This document shows positions 6,990-62,915 of a stretch of DNA of 64,000 nt, piece by piece. A model generated the notes under the pieces. The model saw only the letters and a list, made by a program, of their open reading frames with translations. It made no database searches and had not been told where the DNA came from. The position numbers and the translations under genes were made by a program. The stretch comes from Candidatus Moranbacteria bacterium GW2011_GWC2_40_12 (GTDB taxonomy: Bacteria > Patescibacteriota > Minisyncoccia > Moranbacterales > UBA11712), in NCBI GenBank assembly GCA_000995965.1, contig LBYD01000001.1, forward strand, positions 76,923 through 140,922, in the 5' to 3' direction. Position 1 is the first letter of the stretch. Each line of letters opens with the position of its first letter.

Positions 6990-8582
6990 TTATTTTATCT
7001 TCCAAATGATTGAAATGGTTTTCGACTCGATATTTTGCGCGAGACCCCATTTTTTTTCAGACGGTTCCAGAAAATTGTTATCTATTTCAATTACATCGAA
7101 AGTCCTGCTTTTGACCAGATCGGTATACCAAGTTTTTTCTTCAGCGACGGGTCCCAGGATAAAGATGTTCTCATAGCCATTCTGGTCGATGTATTTCAGG
7201 TCATCTGCGTTAAAAAAATAGACGGCTTTTTTGCCAAAAAGAGATGTCATGGGATCGCTAAGAAGCGAGAATCCGCTGCCAGTGGCCATTCGATCGACCA
7301 AAATCAGATCATTCGGGCCGAATTTTTCGGCTATTTTTTCAATTTGGGGCAAAAGATCTCTATTTTCCGAAAGAGTGAGAAAGCGCCAGCTCACGACGAC
7401 GTTTGCCGTGATAAGGGCCGCAAGGGTGATATAGAGAAATATTTTGTGATAGAAAAACCGGTTGAGAAAATATATCGAGTAAAAAATCAGGATTGGAAAA
7501 ACGGCAAAAACGAACCGGCGCAGCATCCACGGGTCATCAAGAGAAATCATCGGTGAAATAAGATAGAAAAAAGCCGGAAAAGTGAGGAGTATTGGAATAT
7601 ATTCCGGCTTTAGCCAGTTTTTTTTCACTTTTTTTGCGAGCCAGCCGATTCCAGCGAGACCAAGAATGAGATAAGCCAAAATGTTATAGCTCAAAAACAC
7701 AGTCGCGAGATGCGAATACAGGCCAGATGAGGGTGCGGAATCTTTGGTTGAGTCGGGCAGAAAAGCTTTTGTGAAATTTTTGGCGCTGTCAGTCAGATCA
7801 TGATAATTCAGAAAAATATAGAGGGCAGAGAGCAACAATGTGGAAATTAGCAGATATTTTATGAAATTTTTTGAAAGCGGGATTGTATTTTTTCTGTTAA
7901 GGAAATAAATATAGCCGGCGGCAAGGAGATAAAAAACTATTCCCTCGATTCTGGTGAGCGCCGAAAGAGCGAAAAAGAGCAAAGAAATTTGCAGAAAGCG
8001 GTTATCCATATTTTTAGACGTTGGACGTCTAAAAGAAAGCAGAAAATAAATTCCCGCCCAGACGAGAAAAAGCATGAAGATTTCCGTGAGCGCGTATTTG
8101 GCAAACCAAGGGAAAGGAAAAAAAGTCGCGGCGATGAGAAACCCGAGAAGGGAAACTTTCTCGGAAAAAAACTGGCGAAGTGCGAGCCAAAATAATACCA
8201 GAAACAAAGCCAGGTGGAGGAAGTTGGCATACTGGATTCCCTTCAATCCCAACGCGGCATAAAAAACGGCCAGATAGGCGATAAAAGCTTTTGGGAAGCG
8301 GGTTATCAGCTTTCCATCCTTGGTATAGTCAAAACCGGGGAAGTTGAGGGCTCTGCCTTGCCCGTATTTTTGAAATAAGTCGTTTGATGAGGGAGCGGAG
8401 AAAACAAATGATTTGTGTTTTACGAGATCGATCGCGGCGGTTGCGATGGCGCCCTGATCTCGCCCCCCGAAAACAGTTGGAGTCGCGAAATAGCAAGTCG
8501 TGAAAGAAATAGCAAGAGAAATTGCGATGACTACGAGAAAATAATTCCTGTTTCCCTTTTTTTTGGGAGATTGGTGTTCCAT
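6990..8582 (-). CDS. Polytopic membrane protein, putative GT-C-fold glycosyltransferase (PMT/ArnT-like) with C-terminal extracytoplasmic domain
   Basis: At least 10 predicted TM helices followed by soluble C-terminal domain. Start moved to ATG 8582 (MEHQSPKKKG) because table ORF upstream part lacks coding character. Adjacent to polyprenyl-phosphate GT2. Confidence 0.5.
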   Translation of the reverse strand: MEHQSPKKKGNRNYFLVVIAISLAISFTTCYFATPTVFGGRDQGAIATAAIDLVKHKSFVFSAPSSNDLFQKYGQGRALNFPGFDYTKDGKLITRFPKAFIAYLAVFYAALGLKGIQYANFLHLALFLVLFWLALRQFFSEKVSLLGFLIAATFFPFPWFAKYALTEIFMLFLVWAGIYFLLSFRRPTSKNMDNRFLQISLLFFALSALTRIEGIVFYLLAAGYIYFLNRKNTIPLSKNFIKYLLISTLLLSALYIFLNYHDLTDSAKNFTKAFLPDSTKDSAPSSGLYSHLATVFLSYNILAYLILGLAGIGWLAKKVKKNWLKPEYIPILLTFPAFFYLISPMISLDDPWMLRRFVFAVFPILIFYSIYFLNRFFYHKIFLYITLAALITANVVVSWRFLTLSENRDLLPQIEKIAEKFGPNDLILVDRMATGSGFSLLSDPMTSLFGKKAVYFFNADDLKYIDQNGYENIFILGPVAEEKTWYTDLVKSRTFDVIEIDNNFLEPSEKKWGLAQNIESKTISIIWKIK

Positions 8583-8676
8583 TGTATTTCTTATTGACAA
8601 AAGTATAGTAATGTTATAGAATATAGTTTCAAAATTAACAAAAAAACAATAAATGAAAAGGGAGGCAGGCCGGTCA

Positions 8677-9111
8677 ATGAAAATAAAATATTCAATGAAA
8701 AGTTTGAAAAAGTTTCTGGCCAACGCTTTTTCCGGGGGAAATCCGGAAAAAATCCTCGAGGATGTCCATTGCGAGCTCACCCGGAGAAATTTCGCGGTTG
8801 AGAGGTATGAGGACGTTTCCGGGATGGGGATTCGGGGCAGTTTGGACATCTACCCATCGGTTCAGGTCAATGTCTATATTCCCTTCACTTCCGCGTGGGA
8901 GCTGCAGGCGCTTCTCTTCTTCGAGGAGGATGACCAGCTCGAATTGGTGAGCCAGGTCCCCGATTTCAAGGAAAAAATCCTTTTGAGGCGCTATTCCCTG
9001 CCAATTAATCCCCGGGAAATCGCCAGAGCTTTGAGCACGGACGCCCTGCTTCTTGGCGCATTGCTGGCAACTATTCTCAAGCGCCAGGAAATTGAGGCAC
9101 GGCATGAATAG
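8677..9111 (+). CDS. Hypothetical protein (coding status uncertain; an equally long ORF exists on the opposite strand)
   Basis: GC-richer divergent intergenic region between two glycosylation genes; acidic/helical composition plausible, no recognisable motif. Confidence 0.3.
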   Translation: MKIKYSMKSLKKFLANAFSGGNPEKILEDVHCELTRRNFAVERYEDVSGMGIRGSLDIYPSVQVNVYIPFTSAWELQALLFFEEDDQLELVSQVPDFKEKILLRRYSLPINPREIARALSTDALLLGALLATILKRQEIEARHE

Positions 9112-12610: not shown

Positions 12611-13606
12611 ATGGAAAATACCGCCATTGTCATTGTCAACTGGAACGGAAAGAAGTATCTCAAGGACTGCTTCGATTCGCTCCAAAAACAAACCTATGAA
12701 AATTTCAGGGTTATTTTTGTGGACAACGGGTCAACAGACGATTCAGTCAATTTTGTAAAAAATAACTACTTGGAAACTAAGTTTCCAAGTGTAAAAATAG
12801 TTCGATTAGAAAGGAATACCGGTTTCTGTTTTGGATATAACGTGGGCATCAAGTCGGCGCTTGAAGATCCTAAGATAAAATACGTAATTGTTCTCAATAA
12901 TGACACCAGACTGGATGAAAAATACGTCGAAGAATTGGCAAGATGCGCGAAAAAATATCCGGGTACAGGTTCCGTCCAGCCGAAAGTTTTGAATTTTTTT
13001 GAAAGGGAAAAAATTGATTGCGCCGGAATTTATATCACTCGCGACGGGACGGCCCATAACAGGGGATACGGAAGAGATGCAAGAAGATATAGTGAAGAAA
13101 AAGAAATTTTCGGCGCGAACGGGACAGCCTCGCTTTTTACCCGGGAGGCGCTTGAGAAAACAGCCCTTCTGGAGCATAATTATTTCGACAATGACCATTT
13201 TGTTTTCTATGAAGACGTGGATCTGGCCTGGCGGATGAAAAACGCGGGATTTAAGTCGTATTTTTGCCCGCAGGCGGTCGTATATCACGTCCACAGCGGA
13301 ACTGCCGGAAAAGGTTCGCTGATGAAAGCATATTATCTCCACCGAAACTATTTCTTCACTGTCATAAAAAATTATCCTTTTGGAAAAATGGCAAAAACGT
13401 TTTTTTGGCGATTTTTCAGCTATCTGAAGCTGGTCGCGAATATATTCAATAAAAAGAAACGGGAGACGGAATTCGTAAAAGGGCGGAGCAAAGCTGAAGT
13501 CGCCCTTGTGATTCTCAAGGCATGGGGGAGCGTCTTATGCAATTTATCGAGAATGATGAGAAAAAGAATGTTTATCAGAAAAAAGATTCATGAAAATCAA
13601 ATTTGA
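12611..13606 (+). CDS. GT2 glycosyltransferase (rhamnosyltransferase-like)
   Basis: AIVIVNWNG, FVDNGSTDDS, DxD region. Confidence 0.75.
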   Translation: MENTAIVIVNWNGKKYLKDCFDSLQKQTYENFRVIFVDNGSTDDSVNFVKNNYLETKFPSVKIVRLERNTGFCFGYNVGIKSALEDPKIKYVIVLNNDTRLDEKYVEELARCAKKYPGTGSVQPKVLNFFEREKIDCAGIYITRDGTAHNRGYGRDARRYSEEKEIFGANGTASLFTREALEKTALLEHNYFDNDHFVFYEDVDLAWRMKNAGFKSYFCPQAVVYHVHSGTAGKGSLMKAYYLHRNYFFTVIKNYPFGKMAKTFFWRFFSYLKLVANIFNKKKRETEFVKGRSKAEVALVILKAWGSVLCNLSRMMRKRMFIRKKIHENQI

Positions 13607-15248
13607 CTGGAAAATAGTTTTGTTTTCGCTTGTCATCGCCCTCGCAATTTTTCTTCGCGTTTGGCATTTTTCGGACTGGCTTTTTTTCAAAATGGACCAG
13701 GCGCGGGATGCGTCAATTATAAAACAGGCCTTTGAGCTGGGCCCTGGCTGGCTTCCGCTTCTCGGTCCCAAAGCCGGCGGAACGGACCTGAACCTCGGGC
13801 CGGCCTTTTACTATTTCCAATATTTGGCGGCATCGCTTTTCCAAAGCGTCCATCCGGCAGTGCTGGCTTTTCCTGACCTCTTATTCGGAATACTTTCCAT
13901 ACCGCTTTTCTTCATATTTGCCAAAAAATATTTTTCCCGAAACTGGTCAATGATTCTGGCAAGCCTTTTTGCCGTTTCCTTTCTGGGAATCCAATATTCG
14001 CGTTTTTCCTGGAATCCAAACGGGCTCGTATTTTTCAATCTTCTGTTTTTTCTGTCGCTTCTAAATGTATTTGATAAAAATATAAAATACCATCTTCGCT
14101 GGGTGATTCTCGCCGGGATTTCCTTTGCAGTTTCGACCCAGCTTCACTTCCTTTCTTTTCTTACTTTGCCGGTGATTGCGGCGATATTTATAATATTCAA
14201 TTGGAAAGAGTCGAGAAAGGCGCTAAATTGGAGATACGTACTCTTTTTTTTGGCTATCATTCTTCTTATATATCTGCCGGTGATTCTGAATGAAATTGTT
14301 TCCAAGGGGGAAAATACCCATCAATTCATGTTGGCGCTCAAAGAAAAGCCGTCGGAGCACAGTTTTTGGAAAAACATAAAACGAGATATCCGCTATTGGG
14401 GTCAGAATTGGTTTTTGATTCTCACCAGTTGGATCAGCCGCAAGGGCGGAATAAACGGCGCGATTTTGTCATGGCTCGGCGCGATTTTTCCGGCCATTTA
14501 TCTCGGATACAAATCTTTTCGACGGGAGGAAAACGCCGTAAAGAAGAATTTTGTGCTGATTTCGCTTCTCTGGTTTTCTATATATTTTCTCGCTTATATC
14601 CCGATTGCCTATCAAATCCGGCCAAGATTTTTCCTGCCGCTTCTGGTGCTGCCTTTTATTTTCATCGGATATTTGGCGGTGTTTTTTTGGGAAAAAAAGC
14701 ATAAATTTTGGAAAATTTGCGTCTCTGCGGCCATTCTTTTGATTTTTTTGGGGAATTTGACCGGGACCTATTTTTGGTTTGAGGAAATAAGATCAGCCCA
14801 AAAAAAGGGGACTTACCCTTGGCGGACAATCATTCTAAAGGCCAAGGACGGAGTTGTGCTTTGGCACTTGGAGAAGGCGGCAAATTATATGAAAGAAAAT
14901 TGCCAGGCGAAGATAATATATTTTGACGCCCCTTCCGAATATAAAAGGCCGGTAAAATATTTGTTGAATCTGCGGGGAACAGAAGCCGCTTCGATTGAGA
15001 ATCTCAAAACAGGAGAACAAAAACAGTGTGTTTTCTCTTTGGGATTAACTCGGGCGAAAAAATTGTCCACGAGAGAGAAACTGGAAGCCGAATTCGATGT
15101 TGGCGAACAGCAAAAAATCGGCGCGCTGAGTGTCTATAAGCTTTCCCTCAAAGAAAATATTTCAGGCCAAACCTTGCCGTCTTACAAAGCAGGTGCGGAA
15201 GAGAATGAGAAATCGAATCGTATTTTTTGGAAAGATTTGTGGAAATAA
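13590..15248 (+). CDS. GT-C membrane glycosyltransferase (GT39/ArnT/PMT-like, 4-amino-4-deoxy-L-arabinose transferase-like family)
   Basis: N-terminal TM then loop motif FFKMDQARD (DE-containing first loop typical of GT-C), 11-13 TM helices, C-terminal soluble domain. Confidence 0.6.
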   Translation: MKIKFDWKIVLFSLVIALAIFLRVWHFSDWLFFKMDQARDASIIKQAFELGPGWLPLLGPKAGGTDLNLGPAFYYFQYLAASLFQSVHPAVLAFPDLLFGILSIPLFFIFAKKYFSRNWSMILASLFAVSFLGIQYSRFSWNPNGLVFFNLLFFLSLLNVFDKNIKYHLRWVILAGISFAVSTQLHFLSFLTLPVIAAIFIIFNWKESRKALNWRYVLFFLAIILLIYLPVILNEIVSKGENTHQFMLALKEKPSEHSFWKNIKRDIRYWGQNWFLILTSWISRKGGINGAILSWLGAIFPAIYLGYKSFRREENAVKKNFVLISLLWFSIYFLAYIPIAYQIRPRFFLPLLVLPFIFIGYLAVFFWEKKHKFWKICVSAAILLIFLGNLTGTYFWFEEIRSAQKKGTYPWRTIILKAKDGVVLWHLEKAANYMKENCQAKIIYFDAPSEYKRPVKYLLNLRGTEAASIENLKTGEQKQCVFSLGLTRAKKLSTREKLEAEFDVGEQQKIGALSVYKLSLKENISGQTLPSYKAGAEENEKSNRIFWKDLWK

Positions 15249-16043: not shown

Positions 16044-18281
16044 ATGACGAAGGGAAAAAATCAAATGAAAAAACTCTGGAGCAACGAAAAAATCAGAATT
16101 ATTTTCTTCTACGCGCTTTTGACGGTAATTTTAACCTGGCCCTTTGCCTGGAATTTTTTCTCTTCTGTTCCGAGTCTTGGATCTGATACGATGCAGGTGA
16201 TCGGTGTAGCCGGGGAAAGAATGAATGTTCTCAAAGATCTGGGTGTTTTCAAAGGATCTGTTGAGCTTATGAAGCGATCGGAATTCAATATAGTCACTCT
16301 TTATGCCTTTTTTCAGCTCATTTTCGGCCGGATTGCCGGATATAATCTACTATTTTTCGCATCGTTTGTCCTTTCTGGTTTTGGAATGTATCTTCTTGCC
16401 TATTATTTCACCAAAAGCAAGCCGGCCTCGCTCATTGCCGGAATTATTTTCGCTTTTTTGCCGTTCCATGTCCACAATTCTTTGAGCACCAATGTTGGAA
16501 CAATGCATCAGGAGTGGCTGCCGTTTTTTGCGTTGTATCTTTTCCGGTTTTTCGATAATCTCAAGGCGAAAAACTTTCTATTGGCCGGTCTTTTTCTGGG
16601 ACTGATTGCCTTTACCGAACACCAACTTTTTGCTTTCACACTTATTTTTGTGTCTTTTTTTGTCGTATTCAAAATTTTCACCCAGCCGAGGATATTTCTC
16701 AAAAGAAAATTCTGGCTGTATGCAGTTGTCAGTTTCGTGGTCCTTTCGGCTGTTTCTCTTTTTATGTTCCGTTCACTTTTTGAGATCGCTTTTTCGGGCA
16801 ATAACTATCTTGATCCCGGATTCAAAGCGGCCGTGAAATATTCAAATGACGCCCTGAGTGTTTTCGTTCCGCCGAATTTCCATTCCTTTTGGCCCGGAGC
16901 CTTTTCGGGCTTGCGGGAAACATTCGAGCGGCGGACAGACAGCTCATTTTCGGCTTATGTCGGATTTCTGGTTCTTCTCTTGTCTGCCGCCGCATTTTTC
17001 AGGGACAGAGTATCCAAGAAATGGTTTTGGCTGGCGGTGGCAATCGGTTTTTATGTCCTTTCGCTCGGTCCGCATCTGCATTTCAAAGGAGAACTAGACC
17101 CGCCAGTCAAAATGCCATATCTTCTCGCCTATGAATATCTGCCGTTTTTCAACAACATTCGGACAGTTGGCAGATTGTTTGTGTTTTCGGCAGTGGCATT
17201 TTCGGTTTTGGCGGCGTGGGGAAGCGCGTATGTGATATTAAAAATAAGAAATAAAAGGGAAGAAATAAAAAATGAATTATTAAACGGCGATATCTCAAAA
17301 AGCGAACAAGTCGATATTTTTGGATCTAATCGCGGGCAAAAAATTTTATTTTTTGCGGTCAGCGCAGTTATCATTCTTGAATTTCTCGCAATTCCTGTCA
17401 AAACAAACTCACTCTTGCACTCCTCATTTTATGAAAAACTCGGCCAGGAAAAAGAAGATTATAACATTCTGGAGGTTCCCGGGAGCACGGATTATGACTT
17501 TGCCTCGCGCGATTTGGTTTGGAAGAGCATCCATCGAAAAAACACTATCAATGGTTATGATTTTGCCCGGGTGATTGACGATCACTACACATTTCAACGC
17601 GGAACCCCTGTCATTCGGACGCTGCTTTATGATATTCCGGAAGGGAACGAGAAACAAAATGACCGTGACATCATGAAGGATTCATATTACAAAATTTCAA
17701 ATGAAATCTTGAATTATTATAATATCCGATACGTTGTCTTGGACAAAGAGGGCCTCAAGGGAAATCCGGAAAAGGGAGACGCGGACCAGTTTTATTCCGC
17801 AAGGGCATACGCGCAAAATGTCTTGAAATGCAAAAGTGAATTCGAGGATGACTTTTTATTCGCTTGCGAGGTGAGCCGGGACGCCGCACCAAGGCATATG
17901 TTTGTGGCAATGGACTATTCCAACAAGCATTGGGTTGGAAAAGACAAAGGAAAAGACGGAATCCGGCGCTGGGCCGAGTCCGGTGCGGGAGTGAAAATTG
18001 TGAACATGTCGCCGGAGCCCCAAGAGGGAAAATTTAATTTTAAAGTAAAACTATATAAGCCGATACGGGTGATTGCGCTTCTGAACGGCGCGCCTGTTTT
18101 CGACAAATATATCACTCAATTTTCTGAAAAAACATACGTATCGGTTGATATTTCCGGCATAAAGTCCGGAGAAAATGAAATTATTTTTGAAGTCCGCGCC
18201 GCAAACGGTTTGGAAATTCGCTCTGAAAAAAAGTCAGACGTAGCGACGATATATGACGTGGAAGTGGAAGCGAAGAAATAG
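16044..18281 (+). CDS. Large polytopic membrane protein with C-terminal extracytoplasmic domain (putative GT-C/YfhO-like glycosyltransferase)
   Basis: 745 aa, about 12 TM helices in first 420 aa then soluble domain; immediately downstream of Dpm1-like GT2. No exact family assignable without a search. Confidence 0.45.
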   Translation: MTKGKNQMKKLWSNEKIRIIFFYALLTVILTWPFAWNFFSSVPSLGSDTMQVIGVAGERMNVLKDLGVFKGSVELMKRSEFNIVTLYAFFQLIFGRIAGYNLLFFASFVLSGFGMYLLAYYFTKSKPASLIAGIIFAFLPFHVHNSLSTNVGTMHQEWLPFFALYLFRFFDNLKAKNFLLAGLFLGLIAFTEHQLFAFTLIFVSFFVVFKIFTQPRIFLKRKFWLYAVVSFVVLSAVSLFMFRSLFEIAFSGNNYLDPGFKAAVKYSNDALSVFVPPNFHSFWPGAFSGLRETFERRTDSSFSAYVGFLVLLLSAAAFFRDRVSKKWFWLAVAIGFYVLSLGPHLHFKGELDPPVKMPYLLAYEYLPFFNNIRTVGRLFVFSAVAFSVLAAWGSAYVILKIRNKREEIKNELLNGDISKSEQVDIFGSNRGQKILFFAVSAVIILEFLAIPVKTNSLLHSSFYEKLGQEKEDYNILEVPGSTDYDFASRDLVWKSIHRKNTINGYDFARVIDDHYTFQRGTPVIRTLLYDIPEGNEKQNDRDIMKDSYYKISNEILNYYNIRYVVLDKEGLKGNPEKGDADQFYSARAYAQNVLKCKSEFEDDFLFACEVSRDAAPRHMFVAMDYSNKHWVGKDKGKDGIRRWAESGAGVKIVNMSPEPQEGKFNFKVKLYKPIRVIALLNGAPVFDKYITQFSEKTYVSVDISGIKSGENEIIFEVRAANGLEIRSEKKSDVATIYDVEVEAKK

Positions 18282-33508: not shown

Positions 33509-36091
33509 TTACGGCCTGGCTTGCAGGCTGTTGATTTTTTGGATTAAGTCCTGAATTTCGCTAAGAAGCACGGCAGGCGTTGTGTTCAATCTTTTGGCCG
33601 CTGCTATGCCAATTTTTAATTTTTCAAATCCGAGTATTGCAAGCAGTCTTATCTCAGATGGCTTTAGACGCTTGATCACTCCAGCGATTTCCGGTCTGAC
33701 GCCGTTCTTTTTCGGGTCTTTTTTTTCAAGCCTAAATTGAACAGCTCCAGAAAACTCGGGATCAAGGATTAAAGTATTGTCGTCTGCGAGCAACATAGGT
33801 TGCCACTTCTTGTTAATGCTCGGCGACCTTTCCGGTGGGACGCGAGGAATCGGCATTTCGGCTGCCGGAATAACCGGAGGCTCAATCGGGAAAATCGGCG
33901 TGCCGATCTCCGAAAAAAGCATCACAATCACTTGAGGCGGTTGGCCAAAAATAAACCTCCTTTCGCCGTCATTCCTTGTGTATGAGGTGCGAAGCGGCGG
34001 AACGCGCGGAACACGTATTTTGTCTTTCAGGATAACCGGAGGCTCAATCGGAAAAATCGGCGTGCCGATCTCCGAAAAAAGCATCTCGGTTATTCTTGGA
34101 GGATCACCGAAGACAAACCTTTTTTCTCCGATAATTTCCGTATCAGGAGATTTAGGCTTTTTGGATATGGCATTCTCCGAAACGACTTCCTTATCCTCAA
34201 AGGGTGGGTAATACCTTGGATAGCAAGCCGGCGGGCGCCGCGGCCTCGGACGATGATCCTGCGGATGCTCGCAGAGCGGAATTACAACATCCTCCACTTT
34301 TCCCGAACGCCAGTGTTTGGCGTTAAAAATTATTTCGAAATGTTGACGGTCAGGAAACGCGGGATAGTACGGATTTGAGCCCTTTTTCCTGCGATTTCCG
34401 TTAGCCGAACCCTCATCATAAAAGGATTTCAATCTTGTGACACGGGACGGATGCCGAAGTTTGCGCAGGGCTTTGGCTTCAATCTGCCGGATGCGTTCGC
34501 GCGTGACTTCGAAATCTTTATCATGCCCGACCTCCTCCAAAGTCATATCTTTTGCTTCCCCGATGCCGAAGCGCTTGCGAAGGACTTTTTCCTCGCGCGG
34601 CGTCAATGTGGTCAGCATCTTGCGGGTTTGGTCTGCCAGATTGAGACTGGCGACTGCCTCAAATGGAGTGGAAACTTTCTCATCTTTTATGAAATCGCCC
34701 AGAAAATCATTCTCATCTTCACCGACAGGAGTTTCGAAGGATATTGGTTCCTTCGCGATTTTGAGGACTTTCAGCACTTTCTCCAAAGGAAATTCCATCT
34801 TGTCGGCGATTTCTTCGGCAGTTGGCTCTCGCCCCATTTCCTGGACCAGATACCGCGAGGTCCGGATAAGCTTATTGATGGTTTCGATCATATGGACCGG
34901 TATGCGGATGGTGCGAGCTTGATCGGCGATGGCGCGGGTAATGGCCTGCCTGATCCACCAGGTGGCATATGTGCTGAATTTGTAGCCGCGCTCGTATTCG
35001 AACTTTTCCACGGCTTTCATGAGACCGACATTGCCTTCCTGGATGAGATCCAGGAATTGAAGCCCGCGGTTGGCGTATTTCTTGGCGATGCTCACCACCA
35101 GCCGCAGATTGGCTTCTACCATTTCCCGTTTGGCCTTGTGAGCTTTATACTCGCATTTTTCCAGTTTTTCCACAGTGGCCAGCAACTGGCCAGAAGGGAG
35201 ACCGATAATCTGTTCGTATCTTCGCAGTTCGTTGCGGGTTTTATTTTGCAGGTATTTCAGCTCTTCGAATCTCTCCGGTGCTAAGCCGGCCGGCAGCAGA
35301 ATTTCTGCTTCCTGTTTGGACTTCCGGACAATGTCCCTGAGCTTTGTTTCAGATATTTTGGCACAGGCGAACGCCGCATTTTTCTTGCGGATGAGATCGC
35401 GCGCCGCGGAGGCGATCACGCGCAAATCCTCGGCGATTGCCTGAAAATAAATCGGCTCGAGACGCAGTGCTTCGAAGCGATCAGCCAGACGCCGACGGGC
35501 CGCGACAATGGACCGCTGAATTTGATCAACTTCATCGCTGTCCGGCGGAAGGACTGCCAATCTTTCGCCCAGCAGGTTAATTTTTTGATATTCCGCCAAA
35601 AATCCGGAAATAATCCAAGAATTCCTGGATTTTCGATCTGCCGGATCCGTGTTCAGGTCTTCTTCGCCGAAGTCGTCGATTTTTTCTTCAGCCTTCGACA
35701 TTTTATAATTCGTTCCGTGTTTCAAGCCTTTGACGAAGTCGGCGACATTTCTCAATGAGTAAGGAATCTCAAAGAGGGTCGAAAAAAATTCTCTCTCGCC
35801 AGCTTCAATCCGTTTGGCAATCGCGACTTCCTGCTCGCGGGTAAGAAGAAGAGGAATTTCACACATATCTTTGAGATACAGGCGAACAGGATCGTCGAAT
35901 TTCATCGAAGCTTCTGTTTCAGCGTCTTTTTCTTGAAGTAGCGGACGTTCGTTAATCTCCCCTTCCTCGTTTGTTTCGTCGGCAAGATCCGATTCATAAG
36001 ATGATGAAAGCGTCCCGAAGTCTTCTACGGGTTCTCCGTTTGACAGTTGGTCAATCATAATATCCGTGACAGAATCGTCGTCGTAAGACAT
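33509..36091 (-). CDS. rpoD: RNA polymerase sigma-70 factor RpoD (regions 1.1-4.2) with roughly 290-aa non-canonical C-terminal extension containing a 54-aa tandem repeat
   Basis: Region 2 ([34 protein letters not shown]), region 3, region 4.2 ([29 protein letters not shown]). Canonical AAGGAGGTGA SD 8 nt upstream. Single 860-codon frame. Confidence 0.85.
33870..34085 (-). repeat. Two 54-bp near-identical direct repeats 162 bp apart inside the rpoD 3' extension (encode [29 protein letters not shown] modules)
   Basis: ataaccggaggctcaatcgg(g)aaaatcggcgtgccgatctccgaaaaaagcatc at 33870..33923 and 34032..34085. Confidence 0.8.
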
Positions 36092-50473: not shown

Positions 50474-51271
50474 ATGATACGCTTTGCCGCGATTACTCCT
50501 CATCCGCCAATTATTATTCCGACTATCGGTCGGAGTAATTTGAATTTGAGCAGAAAAACCGTGAATGCGATGAAGGCGGCTGGAGAAAAATTCCGTTCCG
50601 TAAAAGCGAATACGATTGTTCTGATTTCACCCCATGGTCCGGTGCAATACGATAAATTCATTATCAACTATTCTCCCACTCTTCGCGGAGATTTGTCCTC
50701 TTTCGGCGATCATCGCCGGTTTATTTTCGAAAATGACCGCGAACTCATTGACGAGATTATGGAAAGTAGCCGGATGGCCCGATTGCCGATTGGCCTAGCG
50801 AGGGAACTCGAACTTGATCATGGAGCCCTGGTGCCTCTTTATTATTTGATGAATGAAAAGGATTTGGGCTATAATCCGCGGCTGATCCATATGTCATATT
50901 CAATGCTGCCTTTGGATTATCATTTCCGATTTGGAGAAATTTTGGGGAGTGTCTTGCAAGGCAGCCCAAAACTGATCTCTTTCATTGCGAGTGGAGATTT
51001 GTCGCACCGGGTTTCGCTTGATGCTCCGGCCGGATACTCCCCCCAAGGAAGAGTGTTTGACAGGATGCTCATTGATTTAATCCAGCAAAAAAACACCAAA
51101 GGCGTTCTGAATATCGACCCATATCTCATTGAAGAATCCGGAGAATGCGGTTTGCGTTCGATTATCATGCTCTTGGGTGCTCTCAAGAACACGAGATGGG
51201 AAGTGAAGAATTTGAGTTATGAAGCTCCTTTCGGAGTGGGATACATGGTGGCGAGCCTTAATATCAAATAA
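50474..51271 (+). CDS. MEMO1/AmmeMemoRadiSam-system-protein-B family (class III extradiol dioxygenase fold)
   Basis: PHPPIIIP ... ISPHGP ... DHGALVPLYYL ... ASGDLSHR motifs. Confidence 0.7.
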   Translation: MIRFAAITPHPPIIIPTIGRSNLNLSRKTVNAMKAAGEKFRSVKANTIVLISPHGPVQYDKFIINYSPTLRGDLSSFGDHRRFIFENDRELIDEIMESSRMARLPIGLARELELDHGALVPLYYLMNEKDLGYNPRLIHMSYSMLPLDYHFRFGEILGSVLQGSPKLISFIASGDLSHRVSLDAPAGYSPQGRVFDRMLIDLIQQKNTKGVLNIDPYLIEESGECGLRSIIMLLGALKNTRWEVKNLSYEAPFGVGYMVASLNIK

Positions 51272-51355: not shown

Positions 51356-53290
51356 ATGAAAGGCAATTATATAATAAAAATCGCTCCGCTCATTCGCTTG
51401 CCAATCGCGAGAACGCAGGTTTTCTCGTATTTATTCCGGAAGCCGATAAAAAGCGGGAGCCTGGTGGAAATACCTTTCTATAATCGCGTCATTTCAGGGA
51501 TCGCATTGGACAGCCGAGAGGATTTTCCCCGAAAAGGAAATTTTGAACTGAAGAATGTGAAAAACATCGTGGAAGAAGAAATGCTTACCGAAAAACAAAT
51601 CAAATTTGCAAAAAAAATGGCGGATTTCTATCTTTCTCCGCTTGGGATAATTTTGAAGATGATGGTTCCGAAAATCTCGGAAATGAAGAAAAAAAAACGA
51701 ATGAATGCGGCGAAGATTGAGATAATAAAAAAAAGCGGTCGGACGAAGGAAATAACAGGCGCAAAAAGCAAAGAAGTCGTCTTGGTCGGTCCCGAAGATG
51801 AAAGAGATAAGGATATATTTTCAGCCATGAAGCAGGCAATTGCAGAAAATAAGCAATTATTGTATCTTATTTCTGAGATATTTCCTGCAGCTGCTTTTTT
51901 TGAAAATCTCAAAAAACATTTTCAAACAGAAGAAATTGCCCTGATTCACGGATCGGTCTCAAAAGGAAATTTCTTTGACGTTTGGGAAAAAATCAAAAAT
52001 GGAGAAATCAAGATAGTCGTCGCTACGAAAACGGGCCTATTTCTCCCCTTTTGCGGGCTTGGGACGATCGCGGTCGAGGAATCCGGTGAAATTTCACACA
52101 AGCAATGGGACATGAACCCGAGATACAACGCGGCTCGAGCCGCCAAGTTGCTGGCCGATATCCATGGTGCGAAAATAATATATTCAAATTCCGTTCCAAC
52201 TGTTGAAATGTGGAAAAGAAAAAAAGAGAAGTTTGTTCAAGCATCGGATTTGGGTGAAGATAATTCAAACCGGAGCGAAATCAGAATATCGAACATCTTC
52301 AGAGAAAAAAAGAGCGCTGACTTTCCGATTGCAAAGGAGCTTTACAAGTCGCTCTCAAGCATAATAGACAGAAAAGAAAAGGCGCTGCTGGTCGTGAACC
52401 GAAAAGGATTTTCAAGTTATTCGATTTGCCGAAGCTGCAAAACAGTTTTGCGCTGTCCAGAATGCAACCGGGCGCTGGTCTATTTTGAAGAAAAAGAAAA
52501 ATACAGATGCCTTCATTGCAGCCATAAAATGGATCTTTTTTGCGCCTGTCCTTCTTGCGGGGCATGCCAATTTTCACATCAGGGAATAGGTATCCAGCTG
52601 GTCGAGAAAAAAATCAGAAGGCTTTTCCCGTCAGCGCGAATACTGCGTCTTGAAGCTGACGCTTCGAAATCGAAAAAGAAAAGCGAAAAAATGTTGAAAG
52701 ATTTGTCGGATGAAAATTTCGACATTCTCATCGGCACGCAAGTCGCCTTGAAAATTGGCAGACTTTGCAAATTCAACCTAGTTGCTTTTCCCAGCTTTGA
52801 CGATTTGGGAAGCATTCCCGATTTCAACTCGAGAGAAATGGTCTTTGCGATTCTTGGCCAAGCTGAGGGCCTTCTGAAAAAAAGCGGCATTTTGATCGTT
52901 CAAACGGTTTATCCCGACAGTTTTTTGCTGGGCTCGTTCAAAAACCGAAATTGGGCTGAGTTTTTCGAAAAAGAGCTGAAGGAAAGAAAAAAAACCATGA
53001 ATCCCCCGTTTTCAAGGATAATCAAAATTATTTTTAGAGATAAAAACAAAATAAAAGCGAAAAATGAGGCTAACAAGGTATATGGCTTGCTCGAAGCGCT
53101 TGCGGATAGTAATATTGATATAGGCGAACCATACGATCCCTTTGCGGCCAAAAGAAGAGGATACTATCATAAAAATATACTGATCAAAGCCGTGCCAGGA
53201 ACCGAAATGCGCAAATTACCTTTTTTTTCCGTGATTAGCGGCCTGCGAAAGGGCTGGGTGGTTGATGTTGATCCGATAAGCACGCTTTAG
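51356..53290 (+). CDS. priA: Primosomal protein N' (PriA) homologue with degenerate helicase Walker A/B motifs and intact Cys-rich zinc-binding region
   Basis: Strong colinearity with PriA lobe 1 (NKQLLYLISEI, IHGSVSKGNFFDVWEKIKNGEIKIVVATKTGLFLPF) and CxxC x4 cluster (CRSCKTVLRCPECN ... CLHC ... CPSCGAC). Walker A position reads GPEDERDK, Walker B reads EESG. Confidence 0.75.
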   Translation: MKGNYIIKIAPLIRLPIARTQVFSYLFRKPIKSGSLVEIPFYNRVISGIALDSREDFPRKGNFELKNVKNIVEEEMLTEKQIKFAKKMADFYLSPLGIILKMMVPKISEMKKKKRMNAAKIEIIKKSGRTKEITGAKSKEVVLVGPEDERDKDIFSAMKQAIAENKQLLYLISEIFPAAAFFENLKKHFQTEEIALIHGSVSKGNFFDVWEKIKNGEIKIVVATKTGLFLPFCGLGTIAVEESGEISHKQWDMNPRYNAARAAKLLADIHGAKIIYSNSVPTVEMWKRKKEKFVQASDLGEDNSNRSEIRISNIFREKKSADFPIAKELYKSLSSIIDRKEKALLVVNRKGFSSYSICRSCKTVLRCPECNRALVYFEEKEKYRCLHCSHKMDLFCACPSCGACQFSHQGIGIQLVEKKIRRLFPSARILRLEADASKSKKKSEKMLKDLSDENFDILIGTQVALKIGRLCKFNLVAFPSFDDLGSIPDFNSREMVFAILGQAEGLLKKSGILIVQTVYPDSFLLGSFKNRNWAEFFEKELKERKKTMNPPFSRIIKIIFRDKNKIKAKNEANKVYGLLEALADSNIDIGEPYDPFAAKRRGYYHKNILIKAVPGTEMRKLPFFSVISGLRKGWVVDVDPISTL

Positions 53291-53356
53291 CTGTACGAAT
53301 CTCTCTCGAATCCGAAAAAATGAAGTTCGAAATTCGTATAAGCATGCAACGTCGCG

Positions 53357-53373
53357 AATTAGTAATTCGTAAT
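53357..53373 (+). repeat. AATTAGTAATTCGTAAT heptad element ending 3 nt before def start codon
   Basis: cgcgaattagtaattcgtaatgttATG read from sequence. Confidence 0.55.
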
Positions 53374-53376
53374 GTT

Positions 53377-53817
53377 ATGCTGAAGATTATAAAATATCCT
53401 GATGATTTTCTCCGCAAAAAGTCGGAAGAAGTGAAAGATTTCAAAGACCCGCAGATCGCGAAGCTGGTTTCAGATATGTTGAAAACAATGGAAGCGGAAA
53501 AAGGAATTGGACTTGCCGCGCCGCAGGTCAATTCCAGCCTTCGAATTTGCGTCGTCCGGGTTGACAACACAGCGCATATATTAATCAATCCAAAAATAAA
53601 ATCTTTTTCCCGAAAAAAAGAAGTTTTCGAAGAGGGGTGCCTGAGCTTTCCGGGAAAGTTTTTTCCGGTTGAACGGCCGGTAAAGGTGAAAATAAAAGCA
53701 AAAGATCTTGATGGCAGGAAAATAAAGATCAAAGCTGAAGGGCTTTTGGCGCGCGTGCTTCAGCATGAAATAGATCATCTTGACGGAGTTTTGATAATTG
53801 ACAGAATTGTAAAATGA
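53377..53817 (+). CDS. def: Peptide deformylase
   Basis: GIGLAAPQV, EGCLSFPG, QHEIDHLDG motifs. Confidence 0.9.
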   Translation: MLKIIKYPDDFLRKKSEEVKDFKDPQIAKLVSDMLKTMEAEKGIGLAAPQVNSSLRICVVRVDNTAHILINPKIKSFSRKKEVFEEGCLSFPGKFFPVERPVKVKIKAKDLDGRKIKIKAEGLLARVLQHEIDHLDGVLIIDRIVK

Positions 53818-54812
53818 TGATTGGGATTTCTCCCAAGATCCGATCTTGGGAAAGTTTGAGGAAAGAGAATATCAAGATTATTTTTTTTGGAACTCCGCAT
53901 TTTGCGGAAAAAATTCTCAAGGAAATAATCACGGCTGGCTATAGTGTCGTGGCCGTCTTCACCCAGCCGGATAAAAAATTTGGGAGGTCGCGGATGATGA
54001 AAAAATCAGCTGTCAAAGAACTGGCCGAAAAAAAAACCATTCCCGTTTTTGAGTCGCAGAATCTCAGGCAAGAAAAGGCAGTCAAGGAAATTATGAAACT
54101 GCGCCCGGATCTTATCGTCGTCGCCGCGTATGGAAAGATTCTTCCCAAATCAATTCTTGAAATTCCGAAATACGGGGCAATAAATATTCATGCTTCGCTT
54201 CTTCCAAAATTCCGCGGCGCCTCCCCCGTTCAAGAGGCCATACTTTCAGGGGAAAATAAAACGGGGATCACTTTGATGCTGATGAACGAAAAATTAGATG
54301 CCGGAGAGATCATAAACCAGGAATCGATTTCAATCAAAAAAAAAGACACCACTCACAGTTTGAGCGAAAAATTGGCTGACGTCGGAGGAAGAGCTTTGCT
54401 CGAAACCATTCCCCTTTGGATTAGCGGATCAATCAAGCCAACTTTGCAAAATGAAAAAGAAGCCACTTTTTGCCGAACAGTAAAAAAAGAAGATGGAAAA
54501 ATCGATTGGAATGATCCGGCGGAAACAATTTTTAGGAAATGGAGAGCATATAAAGTTTGGCCGGGAATATTTGCTTATTTTACCTTAAGAATGGGGAAAA
54601 AAAGGCTGAAGCTGGCGGAGATAGAGATGGAAGAAAAGGAGGATATTGGAGAATTGCCCGGAAAAGTGATAAAATATAAAGACAAGATAGCCGTTCAAGC
54701 AAAAAAAGGATTAATAGTGCTGGAGAGAGTCCAACTCGAGGGGAAAAAAGAAATGACAGTCGAGGAGTTTTTGAAAGGACACAAAGATTTTTTAGGCAAT
54801 GTCTTGGTTTAA
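53814..54812 (+). CDS. fmt: Methionyl-tRNA formyltransferase
   Basis: IIFFGTP, VVAAYGKILP, NIHASLLPKFRGASP; exact start uncertain (overlaps def stop). Confidence 0.88.
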   Translation: MMIGISPKIRSWESLRKENIKIIFFGTPHFAEKILKEIITAGYSVVAVFTQPDKKFGRSRMMKKSAVKELAEKKTIPVFESQNLRQEKAVKEIMKLRPDLIVVAAYGKILPKSILEIPKYGAINIHASLLPKFRGASPVQEAILSGENKTGITLMLMNEKLDAGEIINQESISIKKKDTTHSLSEKLADVGGRALLETIPLWISGSIKPTLQNEKEATFCRTVKKEDGKIDWNDPAETIFRKWRAYKVWPGIFAYFTLRMGKKRLKLAEIEMEEKEDIGELPGKVIKYKDKIAVQAKKGLIVLERVQLEGKKEMTVEEFLKGHKDFLGNVLV

Positions 54813-54824
54813 TAAAACAAAAAA

Positions 54825-55664
54825 ATGCAAAAAGAAAATCCGGAATTTTATCGGAAAAATCAAAACAAAATTTTTATTCTGGGGTTTGTCCTGATTTTAG
54901 CCGTGATCAGCTGGTCTTTAGTCCGGCCGATTATCTTCAAAAATACCCAAAAAGAAGAAAAAGATTCAAAAATAAATGAAGAGATTCTCAAAGCTCCATT
55001 GATTACTTTGAAAGAATTTTCCGAAAAAATTAGGGACAACGAAAAACTGTTCATCGTCGATCTCCGAAACGCCGGTGATTTTTCCGCGGGGCATATAGCC
55101 GGTGCAATAAATTTTCTGCCCGGAACAGGCCTGGCAGATCAAATCAAAAAGGCCGGTGCTGAAAATACGACCAACATTGTTATCGTGAATAAAGGCGAAA
55201 ATGTTTTTGAGGCTGCCGAAGCGGCTAATGATATCATTGCCGCGGGTTTCGTGAATGCGAAATATCTTCGCGGGGGAATAACGGACTGGCGCAATGAAGG
55301 TTATACTTTGGTTTCAGGAGGAAATTCTCCAGGCGATCAAAGCAAAATAAAAAAAATAACAGTTGAAAAATTAGCCAGTGAACTTTCAGGCGGAGACGAA
55401 CTTGTCCAATTTATTGATATAAGAGACAAAGAAAAATTCAATCAAGGCCACATACCAAGGTCAATCAATCTTCCGCTTCCCCATCTTGAATCAAACCAGA
55501 AAGCCATTTCTCCCGTAAAAAAAGCAGTTGTTTATGGTGAAAACGAGGAAGAAGCGAGCAAGGCGGCAGTGATTCTATTCGACCTGAATTTTTTCAATGT
55601 CTATGTTCTTGACGGCGGATTGGCATCCTGGAAAAACAATAACGGAAAAATAGTGAGCGACTGA
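54825..55664 (+). CDS. Membrane-anchored tandem rhodanese-domain protein
   Basis: N-terminal TM, two rhodanese-like modules (FIVDLRNAGDFSAGHIAGAINF and FIDIRDKEKFNQGHIPRSINL); active-site Cys not obvious. Confidence 0.65.
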   Translation: MQKENPEFYRKNQNKIFILGFVLILAVISWSLVRPIIFKNTQKEEKDSKINEEILKAPLITLKEFSEKIRDNEKLFIVDLRNAGDFSAGHIAGAINFLPGTGLADQIKKAGAENTTNIVIVNKGENVFEAAEAANDIIAAGFVNAKYLRGGITDWRNEGYTLVSGGNSPGDQSKIKKITVEKLASELSGGDELVQFIDIRDKEKFNQGHIPRSINLPLPHLESNQKAISPVKKAVVYGENEEEASKAAVILFDLNFFNVYVLDGGLASWKNNNGKIVSD

Positions 55665-57103: not shown

Positions 57104-57177
57104 TCCGGGATCGTCTAATGGTAGGACGCCTGACTCTGGATCAGGTAATCTTGGTTCGAATCCAAGTCCCGGAGCCA
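57104..57177 (+). tRNA. tRNA-Gln (anticodon CTG), CCA encoded, U1:A72
   Basis: Manual fold: acceptor TCCGGGA/TCCCGGA, D-arm GTCT-AATGGTA-GGAC, anticodon arm CCTGA-CTCTGGA-TCAGG, T-arm CTTGG-TTCGAAT-CCAAG, discriminator G, CCA. Confidence 0.85.
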
Positions 57178-62603: not shown

Positions 62604-62674
62604 GCGGGTGTAGTATAGTGGTAATACACGACCTTCCCAAGGTTGAGTTGTGGGTTCGATTCCCATCACCCGCT
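62604..62674 (+). tRNA. tRNA-Gly (anticodon CCC), no encoded CCA
   Basis: Manual fold: acceptor GCGGGTG/CACCCGC, D-arm GTAT-AGTGGTA-ATAC, anticodon arm CGACC-TTCCCAA-GGTTG, T-arm GTGGG-TTCGATT-CCCAT. Confidence 0.8.
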
Positions 62675-62755: not shown

Positions 62756-62827
62756 GCCGGAATAGCTCAGTGGTAGAGCAGCGCTTTCGTAAAGCGAAGG
62801 TCGCGAGTTCGACTCTCGCTTCCGGCT
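62756..62827 (+). tRNA. tRNA-Thr (anticodon CGT), no encoded CCA
   Basis: Manual fold: acceptor GCCGGAA/TTCCGGC, D-arm GCTC-AGTGGTA-GAGC, anticodon loop TTCGTAA (one G.A mismatch at top of anticodon stem), T-arm GCGAG-TTCGACT-CTCGC. Confidence 0.7.
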
Positions 62828-62915
62828 CAAATGATGTGGGGGGTAAACTCTGGTCCGCGTTTTTTGCCTGCCGAAGCTTTAGCGGAGGAGGGCGATCCCG
62901 CGCATCGGCTCTAAA

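Follow-up and report, generated by a model that had tools for sequence, protein, structure and literature searches.

Candidatus Moranbacteria bacterium GW2011_GWC2_40_12 encodes, within a 64,000-nucleotide stretch of contig LBYD01000001.1 (hereafter the window), an orthologue of the primosomal protein PriA that is probably functional but ATPase-dead, serving as a scaffold for fork recognition and primosome assembly without ATP. The gene (51356–53290, + strand) is a single unbroken open reading frame (ORF) of 644 amino acids (aa) plus stop. It has lost the ATPase motifs, is modelled with the PriA fold, occupies the orthologous locus and evolves under purifying selection, with constraint relaxed in the helicase lobes. 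We infer that its product has no ATPase activity, binds forks and recruits a partner. PriA is the near-universal initiator of replication restart in bacteria.

ATPase motifs, retained domains and predicted fold

The encoded protein is identical (100%) to 'primosomal protein N'' of Candidatus Moranbacteria bacterium GW2011_GWC1_45_18 and GWC2_40_12 (P0001; Patescibacteria group, Parcubacteria group, Ca. Moraniibacteriota), and the identical 644-aa sequence occurs on 29 contigs, the longest of 458 kb. The TIGR00595 model for PriA matched with 312.9 bits (cutoff 230.35), the match beginning at model position 15 and residue 155, just past the P-loop. By phmmer against the PDB, residues 154–642 were colinear with PriA of Escherichia coli and Klebsiella pneumoniae (E 3e-52). 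No DEAD or ResIII domain was found by Pfam in the protein, while PF00270 and PF04851 are present in all canonical relatives. NF011453, the model for actinobacterial PriA of the PRK14873 group, gave a weak match of 84.5 bits, far under its cutoff. By descent, fold and locus the protein is a PriA, and it is to be filed as a PriA pseudohelicase.

Motif states were read from a MAFFT alignment of the window PriA with 119 homologues. At motif I (Walker A), canonical GPAGSGKTEVY is replaced by GPEDE-RDKDIF; in the remnant GPEDERDKD (aa 145–153, 51788–51814; this and all further coordinates within priA are on the + strand) one residue is deleted and the Walker lysine has become Arg150. Motif Ia, PELTLTPQ in canonical Moranbacteria, reads SEIFPAAA. 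The motif II (Walker B) remnant VEESGE (aa 240–245, 52073–52090) lies opposite DEEH of E. coli and DEEQD of canonical Moranbacteria, and phmmer against the PDB pairs the E. coli D-E-E-H with E241-E242-S243-G244. Motif III is reduced to SNSVP (aa 277–281, 52184–52198) in place of GSATP. In motif V (aa 460–471, 52733–52768) GTQ is kept, while the distal KGWDLP has changed to KIGRLC. At motif VI, the remnant GQAEGLLKK (aa 501–509, 52856–52882) has five residues deleted and both arginines of QxxGRxxR are gone (canonical QVxGRxxR versus QAEGLLKK). The Q-like LTxEQ element of canonical relatives has disappeared from the linker at aa 106–139 (51671–51772), which was modelled with low confidence (predicted local distance difference test, pLDDT, 52–70 at aa 110–130) and stands where E. 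coli PriA has its winged-helix (WH) domain. The absence of a WH domain between the 3'-DNA-binding domain (3'BD) and lobe 1 is shared with canonical Moranbacteria PriAs.

Loss of the motifs was seen in three independent alignments (HMMER against the PDB, TIGR00595, and MAFFT of 120 sequences), and the protein lacks motifs I, II, III and VI, which define the PriA helicase as an enzyme. A regular-expression search of the whole protein detected no GK[ST], [AG]x4GK, DE[AEV][HDQ], GRxxR or SAT, so that no canonical motif has been displaced; together with the three alignments, this search ruled out a canonical motif elsewhere in the protein. Degeneracy extends over motifs Q, I, Ia, II and III, the distal part of motif V, and motif VI, and hence over the whole ATPase apparatus. 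The initial annotation had described a protein colinear with PriA, with GPEDERDKDIF at the P-loop and EESG at the DEEH box. The phmmer match agrees with that colinearity, MAFFT places both remnants, and phmmer the second, where it had put them, and the region is no misaligned insertion. Its statement that Walker A and Walker B are degenerate also holds, but the extent of the loss was understated, as motifs Q, Ia, III, V and VI are lost as well.

The elements known to contact DNA are retained. The 3'BD (aa 13–105, 51392–51670) is recognized by Pfam PF17764 (aa 15–105, E 2e-13, 50.4 bits versus a cutoff of 22.7); its F23-x-Y25 matches F16-D17-Y18 of E. coli, and Y25, G34 and G48 are invariant. 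The aromatic-rich loop (ARL) SHKQWDMNPRY (aa 247–257, 52094–52126) lies opposite E. coli K328-Q329...R334-Y335, residues of a loop that touches the lagging-strand template at the junction (PMC5175346). Within it, K249, Q250 and P255 are invariant and W251, R256 and Y257 are conserved to at least 90%, on par with canonical relatives. Motif IV, VNRKGF (aa 347–352, 52394–52411), is also retained. Its position 350 is R or K in the clade to which the window protein belongs (clade A, described below) and Gln in 99% of canonical Moranbacteria; K350 matches R428 of E. coli PriA, where R427 and R428 bind single-stranded DNA (ssDNA) in the pore (PMC13594977).

The Cys-rich region (CRR; aa 357–405, 52424–52570) contains four CxxC pairs (C358/361, C367/370, C385/388 and C398/401) forming two predicted zinc sites. 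None of the eight cysteines varies among 68 aligned proteins (alignment A1), nor among 32 diverse degenerate PriAs (A2). F377 in the CRR is a clade-specific insertion; its counterpart in the alignment, E. coli H455, belongs to the CRR-UP interface (PMC13594977). The PriA C-terminal domain (CTD; aa 541–644, 52976–53287) is matched by PF18074 (aa 551–640, E 4e-9), and the retention of zinc-binding cysteines and CTD noted in the initial annotation is thereby confirmed.

An AlphaFold2 model of the window PriA, built on a 68-sequence alignment, reached a pLDDT of 89.7 and a predicted template modelling score (pTM) of 0.90. Using Foldseek, the top nine matches were all PriA, led by E. coli PriA 8fak_H (template modelling score, TM, 0.85; E 1e-48); other PriA structures (6dcr, 6dgd, 4nl4 and 4nl8) matched at TM 0.62–0.70. 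According to the model the fold is kept, with two RecA-like lobes, the CRR inserted in lobe 2, and the CTD following. At the nucleotide pocket, beta1 (aa 140–144) is separated by 2 coil residues from alpha1, which starts at E147, in comparison to 6 coil residues in a control model of the canonical PriA P0056. With the P-loop collapsed to 2 residues between beta1 and alpha1, the anion hole is structurally absent from the model and is predicted to be absent from the protein. We also considered that the pseudohelicase is locked in a CRR-UP state encircling the lagging strand, as its model resembles 8FAK (TM 0.85) more than apo 6DCR (0.70). This idea was rejected as specific evidence because the canonical P0056 model shows the same CRR-UP preference (TM 0.83/0.87 versus 0.70/0.74).

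Clade A, the priA locus and selection

The degenerate motifs are shared across a clade of at least 34 full-length proteins (clade A; P0001–P0035), 41–100% identical; motifs I, III and VI and the distal part of V are missing from each. In the MAFFT alignment, 83 more distant homologues from Moranbacteria and Parcubacteria (33–37% identity) are all canonical. Of the former P-loop, only G145 (33/34) and R150 (34/34) are conserved in clade A, while canonical sisters keep the lysine. Motif II varies among EESGD, EEEQD, KQEAD, QDEQD, NDDQD and DEPLD across the clade, and this drift argues against a new catalytic site.

In the basal clade-A member (L013:4001-5962), the Walker lysine, an undeleted loop and DEEQD are kept (INRSSNEKNQIY), and the P-loop glycines and motif VI arginines are lost. 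This protein looks like an intermediate stage of motif loss.

Directly downstream of priA lie def, fmt and a rhodanese gene (53320–55664, + strand; assigned by Pfam matches). The order priA-def-fmt-rhodanese was found in 12/12 clade-A loci and in most of the canonical Moranbacteria loci fetched. In one of the latter (L004), a canonical PriA with DEAD and ResIII domains is followed by def, fmt and the rhodanese gene and then by cpn10 and a DUF5652 gene on the opposite strand, as in L001. Since the window PriA occupies the slot of the canonical PriA of sister lineages, it is an orthologue rather than a paralogue: the gene is the ancestral priA, and its motifs were lost in place.

That restart is performed by a canonical PriA from another place in the genome and the gene is a redundant paralogue would be conceivable in view of the 64 kb of genome at hand and of metagenome-assembled genomes (MAGs) that are incomplete. 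We give this possibility very little credence, given the shared syntenic slot and the strong purifying selection on the gene described below. The question of a second, canonical priA had been raised in the initial annotation. By tblastn with three canonical Moranbacteria PriAs, none was found in the window. In addition, a genome scan was performed on GTDB representatives (one genome per species), from which the best 80 of 196 pattern-matched loci were analyzed. Among these 80, which come from incomplete MAGs, no assembly of clade A or of two further motif-less groups (B and C, see below) showed a second priA locus, and no whole-genome shotgun (WGS) prefix of clade-A, -B or -C genomes recurred among the canonical loci.

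Upstream of priA lie folD (− strand) and a LigB/Memo-like gene. The latter (50474–51271, + strand) is directly adjacent to priA and occupies this position in all clade-A loci at 62–89% identity; at the priA loci of canonical Moranbacteria, no such gene was detected upstream. Two further observations were made on the loci recovered by the scan. One MAG (assembly JAJYKZ01) has two contigs (L018 and L020), each with a canonical priA-def locus at 35–36% identity to the query, which is probably due to strain heterogeneity or bin contamination rather than to true duplication. Moreover, L007, L011, L013, L014 and many others are typical Moranbacteria priA-def-fmt loci, yet the titles of their MAGs read 'uncultured Bdellovibrionales bacterium' or 'Candidatus Bathyarchaeia archaeon', and such public records are probably mislabelled or contaminated.

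Selection on priA was estimated by codon analysis of unsaturated sequence pairs among L009, L010 and L012 (synonymous divergence, dS, 0.57–0.74). The ratio of nonsynonymous to synonymous divergence (dN/dS) was 0.12–0.17 overall, 0.06–0.18 in the two lobes and 0.04–0.06 in the CRR. Hence, the gene is not a pseudogene, and the protein is under strong purifying selection, its dead lobes included. A decaying, functionless relic might be suspected from the loss of all catalytic motifs and the faster evolution of the lobes, but it is effectively excluded by these ratios, and none of the diverged relatives, at least 34 in number, has a broken ORF, the eight cysteines are invariant and the predicted fold is confident. 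We also compared domain rates of clade A with those of canonical PriAs, matching the two for divergence in Def+Fmt. The rate in lobe 1 is 1.7–1.9 times the canonical one and that in lobe 2 about 1.5 times, followed by the 3'BD (1.15–1.4 times), the CRR (0.9–1.3 times) and the CTD (about 1.0 times). Constraint is relaxed specifically in the former catalytic lobes.

A total of 38 positions are fixed in clade A yet different in canonical relatives, and 12 of these fall within aa 375–435, comprising the CRR and its C-terminal hinge (12 seen versus 3.6 expected; permutation p 0.004 for any 61-aa window). The fixed changes in the CRR and hinge (aa 357–435, 52424–52660) include the inserted F377, H408, K419 and R422. 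The cluster suggests, as a hypothesis only, that CRR dynamics or partner docking have been re-tuned. It is also what speaks for a neofunctionalized protein, which would keep the PriA fold and the zinc module and act outside restart; it might, for instance, bind particular DNA structures and dock a new partner on the remodelled CRR. We regard this as unlikely: a change of partner or of CRR dynamics within restart would explain the CRR changes equally well, conservation of the 3'BD, ARL, motif IV and CTD matches that in canonical PriA, the gene still sits in the priA-def-fmt locus, and the searches described above showed no other priA.

Probable recurrent motif loss and further features of the window

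Among species representatives of Moranbacteria, Walker A is also absent from two other groups of PriAs. Group B (L048:4001-6010, L071:4001-6025 and P0086) has the remnant SGKEKIE or AGSEGVQ and keeps DEEQD, and group C (L078:4001-5923, L083:4001-5935 and L084:4001-5983) has the remnant DTSGHGNDER and [STL]EEQD; motif VI is lost in both. In a neighbour-joining tree of Def+Fmt, support for each of the groups A, B and C is 100%. Bootstrap support for joining them was 0/200 for A+B+C, 0 for A+C, 0 for B+C and 8% for A+B. A tree of PriA itself unites A+B+C in 60% of bootstraps. Because the Def+Fmt tree never joins the three groups and their remnants differ, the grouping in the PriA tree is attributed to long-branch attraction. 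A single origin of the Walker-A-less Moranbacteria PriAs was accordingly rejected on the basis of the Def+Fmt tree (0/200) and of remnants of different kinds, and we conclude with moderate confidence that two to three independent losses occurred in Moranbacteria.

To cover a wider range of proteins, an exhaustive HMMER search was performed over 1.84 billion 50%-identity representatives. It yielded 15,912 relatives, and from the best 150 the full-length proteins, 142 in number (P0131–P0276), were scored. Both Walker A and QxxGRxxR occur somewhere in the sequence in 52 of these, neither in 79, and 11 are intermediate; the proteins had been ranked by their similarity to a query that is itself degenerate. 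Among the 142, four CxxC pairs are found in 140 and three in the other two, and the 79 without either motif retain all four. A rough neighbour-joining tree of 144 aligned proteins (the 142 representatives, the query P0001 and the canonical P0056) requires at least 12 changes of motif state, although the tree is crude. Most of the representatives come without taxonomy, and the only named relatives of divergent degenerate PriAs in the profile search were 'Patescibacteria group bacterium' and 'Ca. Azambacteria'. Pseudohelicase PriA seems to be common among Patescibacteria-type PriAs, and its loss of motifs seems to be frequent and recurrent. In the library searched, no paper was found that links PriA motif loss to the candidate phyla radiation (CPR) or Patescibacteria.

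The variety of remnants bears on the alternative put forward in the initial annotation, a lineage-specific, non-canonical nucleotide site. Such a site would be formed around Arg150 and the remaining acidic residues and would bind or hydrolyse nucleotide. The conservation of R150 (34/34) and G145 (33/34) among clade members and the persistence of acidic residues at 241–242 and D245 are in favour of it. However, groups B and C and dozens of other lineages carry unrelated remnants. The P-loop has one residue fewer, contains neither the Gly-rich turn nor the Ser/Thr, and is modelled with 2 rather than 6 coil residues; deletions or replacements have removed motif III and both arginines of motif VI, and the motif II residues differ among close relatives. 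Furthermore, both E. coli PriA K230R and the natural K-to-R protein of Deinococcus are ATPase-dead (PMC4504706, PMC5778457). The proposal thus found no support, and we consider it highly improbable.

Restart or replication partners were sought among the neighbouring genes in the window, and only housekeeping genes were found; the neighbours comprise folD, the LigB/Memo-like gene, def, fmt, the rhodanese gene, rtcB, tmk, glycosyltransferase genes, ftsEX and prfB. Elsewhere in the window, an 860-aa RpoD-like sigma-70 factor is encoded at 33509–36091 (− strand). Its Pfam regions 1.2, 2, 3 and 4 stop at residue 547, and the remaining approximately 310 C-terminal residues are without Pfam match, an unusually long extension. 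Three ORFs of 745, 619 and 552 aa (16044–18281, + strand; 6990–8849, − strand; 13590–15248, + strand) gave no Pfam match at E ≤ 1e-4. Genes for tRNAs Gln-CTG (57104–57177), Gly-CCC (62604–62674) and Thr-CGT (62756–62828) are located on the + strand.

Proposed mode of action and relation to known PriA proteins

We propose that the RecA-like lobes of the window PriA persist only as a structural, DNA-binding scaffold that would no longer bind or hydrolyse ATP. The 3'BD would bind the nascent leading-strand 3' end, by which an abandoned fork or D-loop is recognized. The ARL, motif IV and a pore closed by the zinc-bound CRR would then hold the lagging-strand template, and this platform, without ATP, may recruit the replicative helicase DnaB, directly or via an adaptor or loader. 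Activity would be limited to forks already exposing a single-stranded lagging-strand template. In E. coli, duplex lagging strands have to be unwound before the CRR can close (PMC13594977). On the best reading, and by analogy, the protein would work like PriA of D. radiodurans and the E. coli K230R variant. The suggestion in the initial annotation of an ATPase-inactive PriA that still recognizes forks and recruits a partner is supported by the loss of the nucleotide motifs, the lack of a new motif shared by the remnants of the clade (G145 and R150 apart), the conservation under purifying selection of the parts that would serve forks and partners, and the precedent of D. radiodurans (PMC4504706).

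Several points weigh against an ATPase-dead scaffold. The invariance of R150 and G145 and the acidic residues left at the motif II position indicate that the former pocket is not evolving neutrally; it may have some ligand- or structure-related role. ATPase inactivity is deduced from sequence and the AlphaFold2 model, the test for a second copy spans only the best 80 of 196 loci in incomplete MAGs, and the partner search covered the neighbours in the window.

A broader version of the scaffold reading extends it to much of the CPR, where PriA would repeatedly have become an ATP-independent fork clamp, with about 12 independent losses among the 144 proteins. In clade A the core would have been re-optimized by the basic residue in motif IV, F377 and the CRR-hinge changes, so that one protein grips ssDNA and loads DnaB directly as a minimal primosome without PriB, DnaT and PriC. 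We put this forward only tentatively and would not favour it on present data. If it were true, the statement in the field that PriA helicase motifs hold in all bacteria save Deinococcus-Thermus would be wrong for much of bacterial diversity.

As a natural experiment, these proteins indicate which functions of PriA are indispensable: the 3'BD, ARL, motif IV, CRR and CTD are kept, and ATP-driven unwinding would have been dropped, which suggests that restart in these reduced genomes takes an ATP-independent route. They provide many natural sequences by which scaffold functions can be separated from motor functions, and the question of what the helicase of PriA is for becomes testable.

In comparison to canonical PriA (TIGR00595; 4NL4, 6DCR, 6DGD and 8FAK), the window PriA has the same order of domains (3'BD, lobe 1 with the ARL, lobe 2 with the CRR, CTD), the same fold (TM 0.85) and the same locus; it differs in having neither the SF2 ATPase motifs nor a WH domain, although canonical Moranbacteria PriAs have no WH domain either. 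Actinobacterial PriAs (the NCBIfam PRK14873 group), a different and distant subfamily, are flagged by curators as being without detectable helicase motifs or domains. If this is so, the general phenomenon is less surprising.

In E. coli, PriA variants K230R, K230A and K230D have no ATPase, helicase or translocase activity and still assemble primosomes in vitro; in vivo, they support restart via PriA-PriB-DnaT, on forks whose lagging strand is ssDNA, and not via PriA-PriC (PMC5778457; PMC13594977). As proposed for the window PriA, primosome assembly is separable from ATPase and helicase activity in these mutants (priA300). Unlike the window PriA, however, they carry one engineered substitution in an otherwise intact core and depend on PriB and DnaT. 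Both of these proteins are narrowly distributed, and their presence in this organism is unlikely.

The closest counterpart is the PriA of Deinococcus radiodurans, which has a natural Walker K-to-R exchange and poor motifs I and II, shows no ATPase or helicase activity, and binds ssDNA, forks and DnaB (Lopper, Boone & Morrow 2015, PMC4504706). Common to both pseudohelicases are a non-consensus Walker A and B, arginine in place of the Walker lysine (R150 in 34/34 clade-A proteins) and a retained DNA-binding and CRR architecture. In contrast to the D. radiodurans protein, for which the paper reports poor matches to no motifs other than I and II, the window PriA has lost motifs Q, I, Ia, II, III, V and VI and carries indels at the P-loop and at motif VI; it is also much shorter (644 aa), has no WH domain and is known here from sequence. 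Its origin is independent and in another phylum (Ca. Moraniibacteriota, Patescibacteria), and the loss recurs within the lineage. As PriA pseudohelicases are already known from Deinococcus-Thermus, no new mechanism is involved. What appears to be new is the independent origin in the CPR, the complete erosion with indels, and the recurrence and high frequency among Patescibacteria-type PriAs, which would make these proteins a second natural lineage of PriA pseudohelicases in which erosion has gone far further than in the first.

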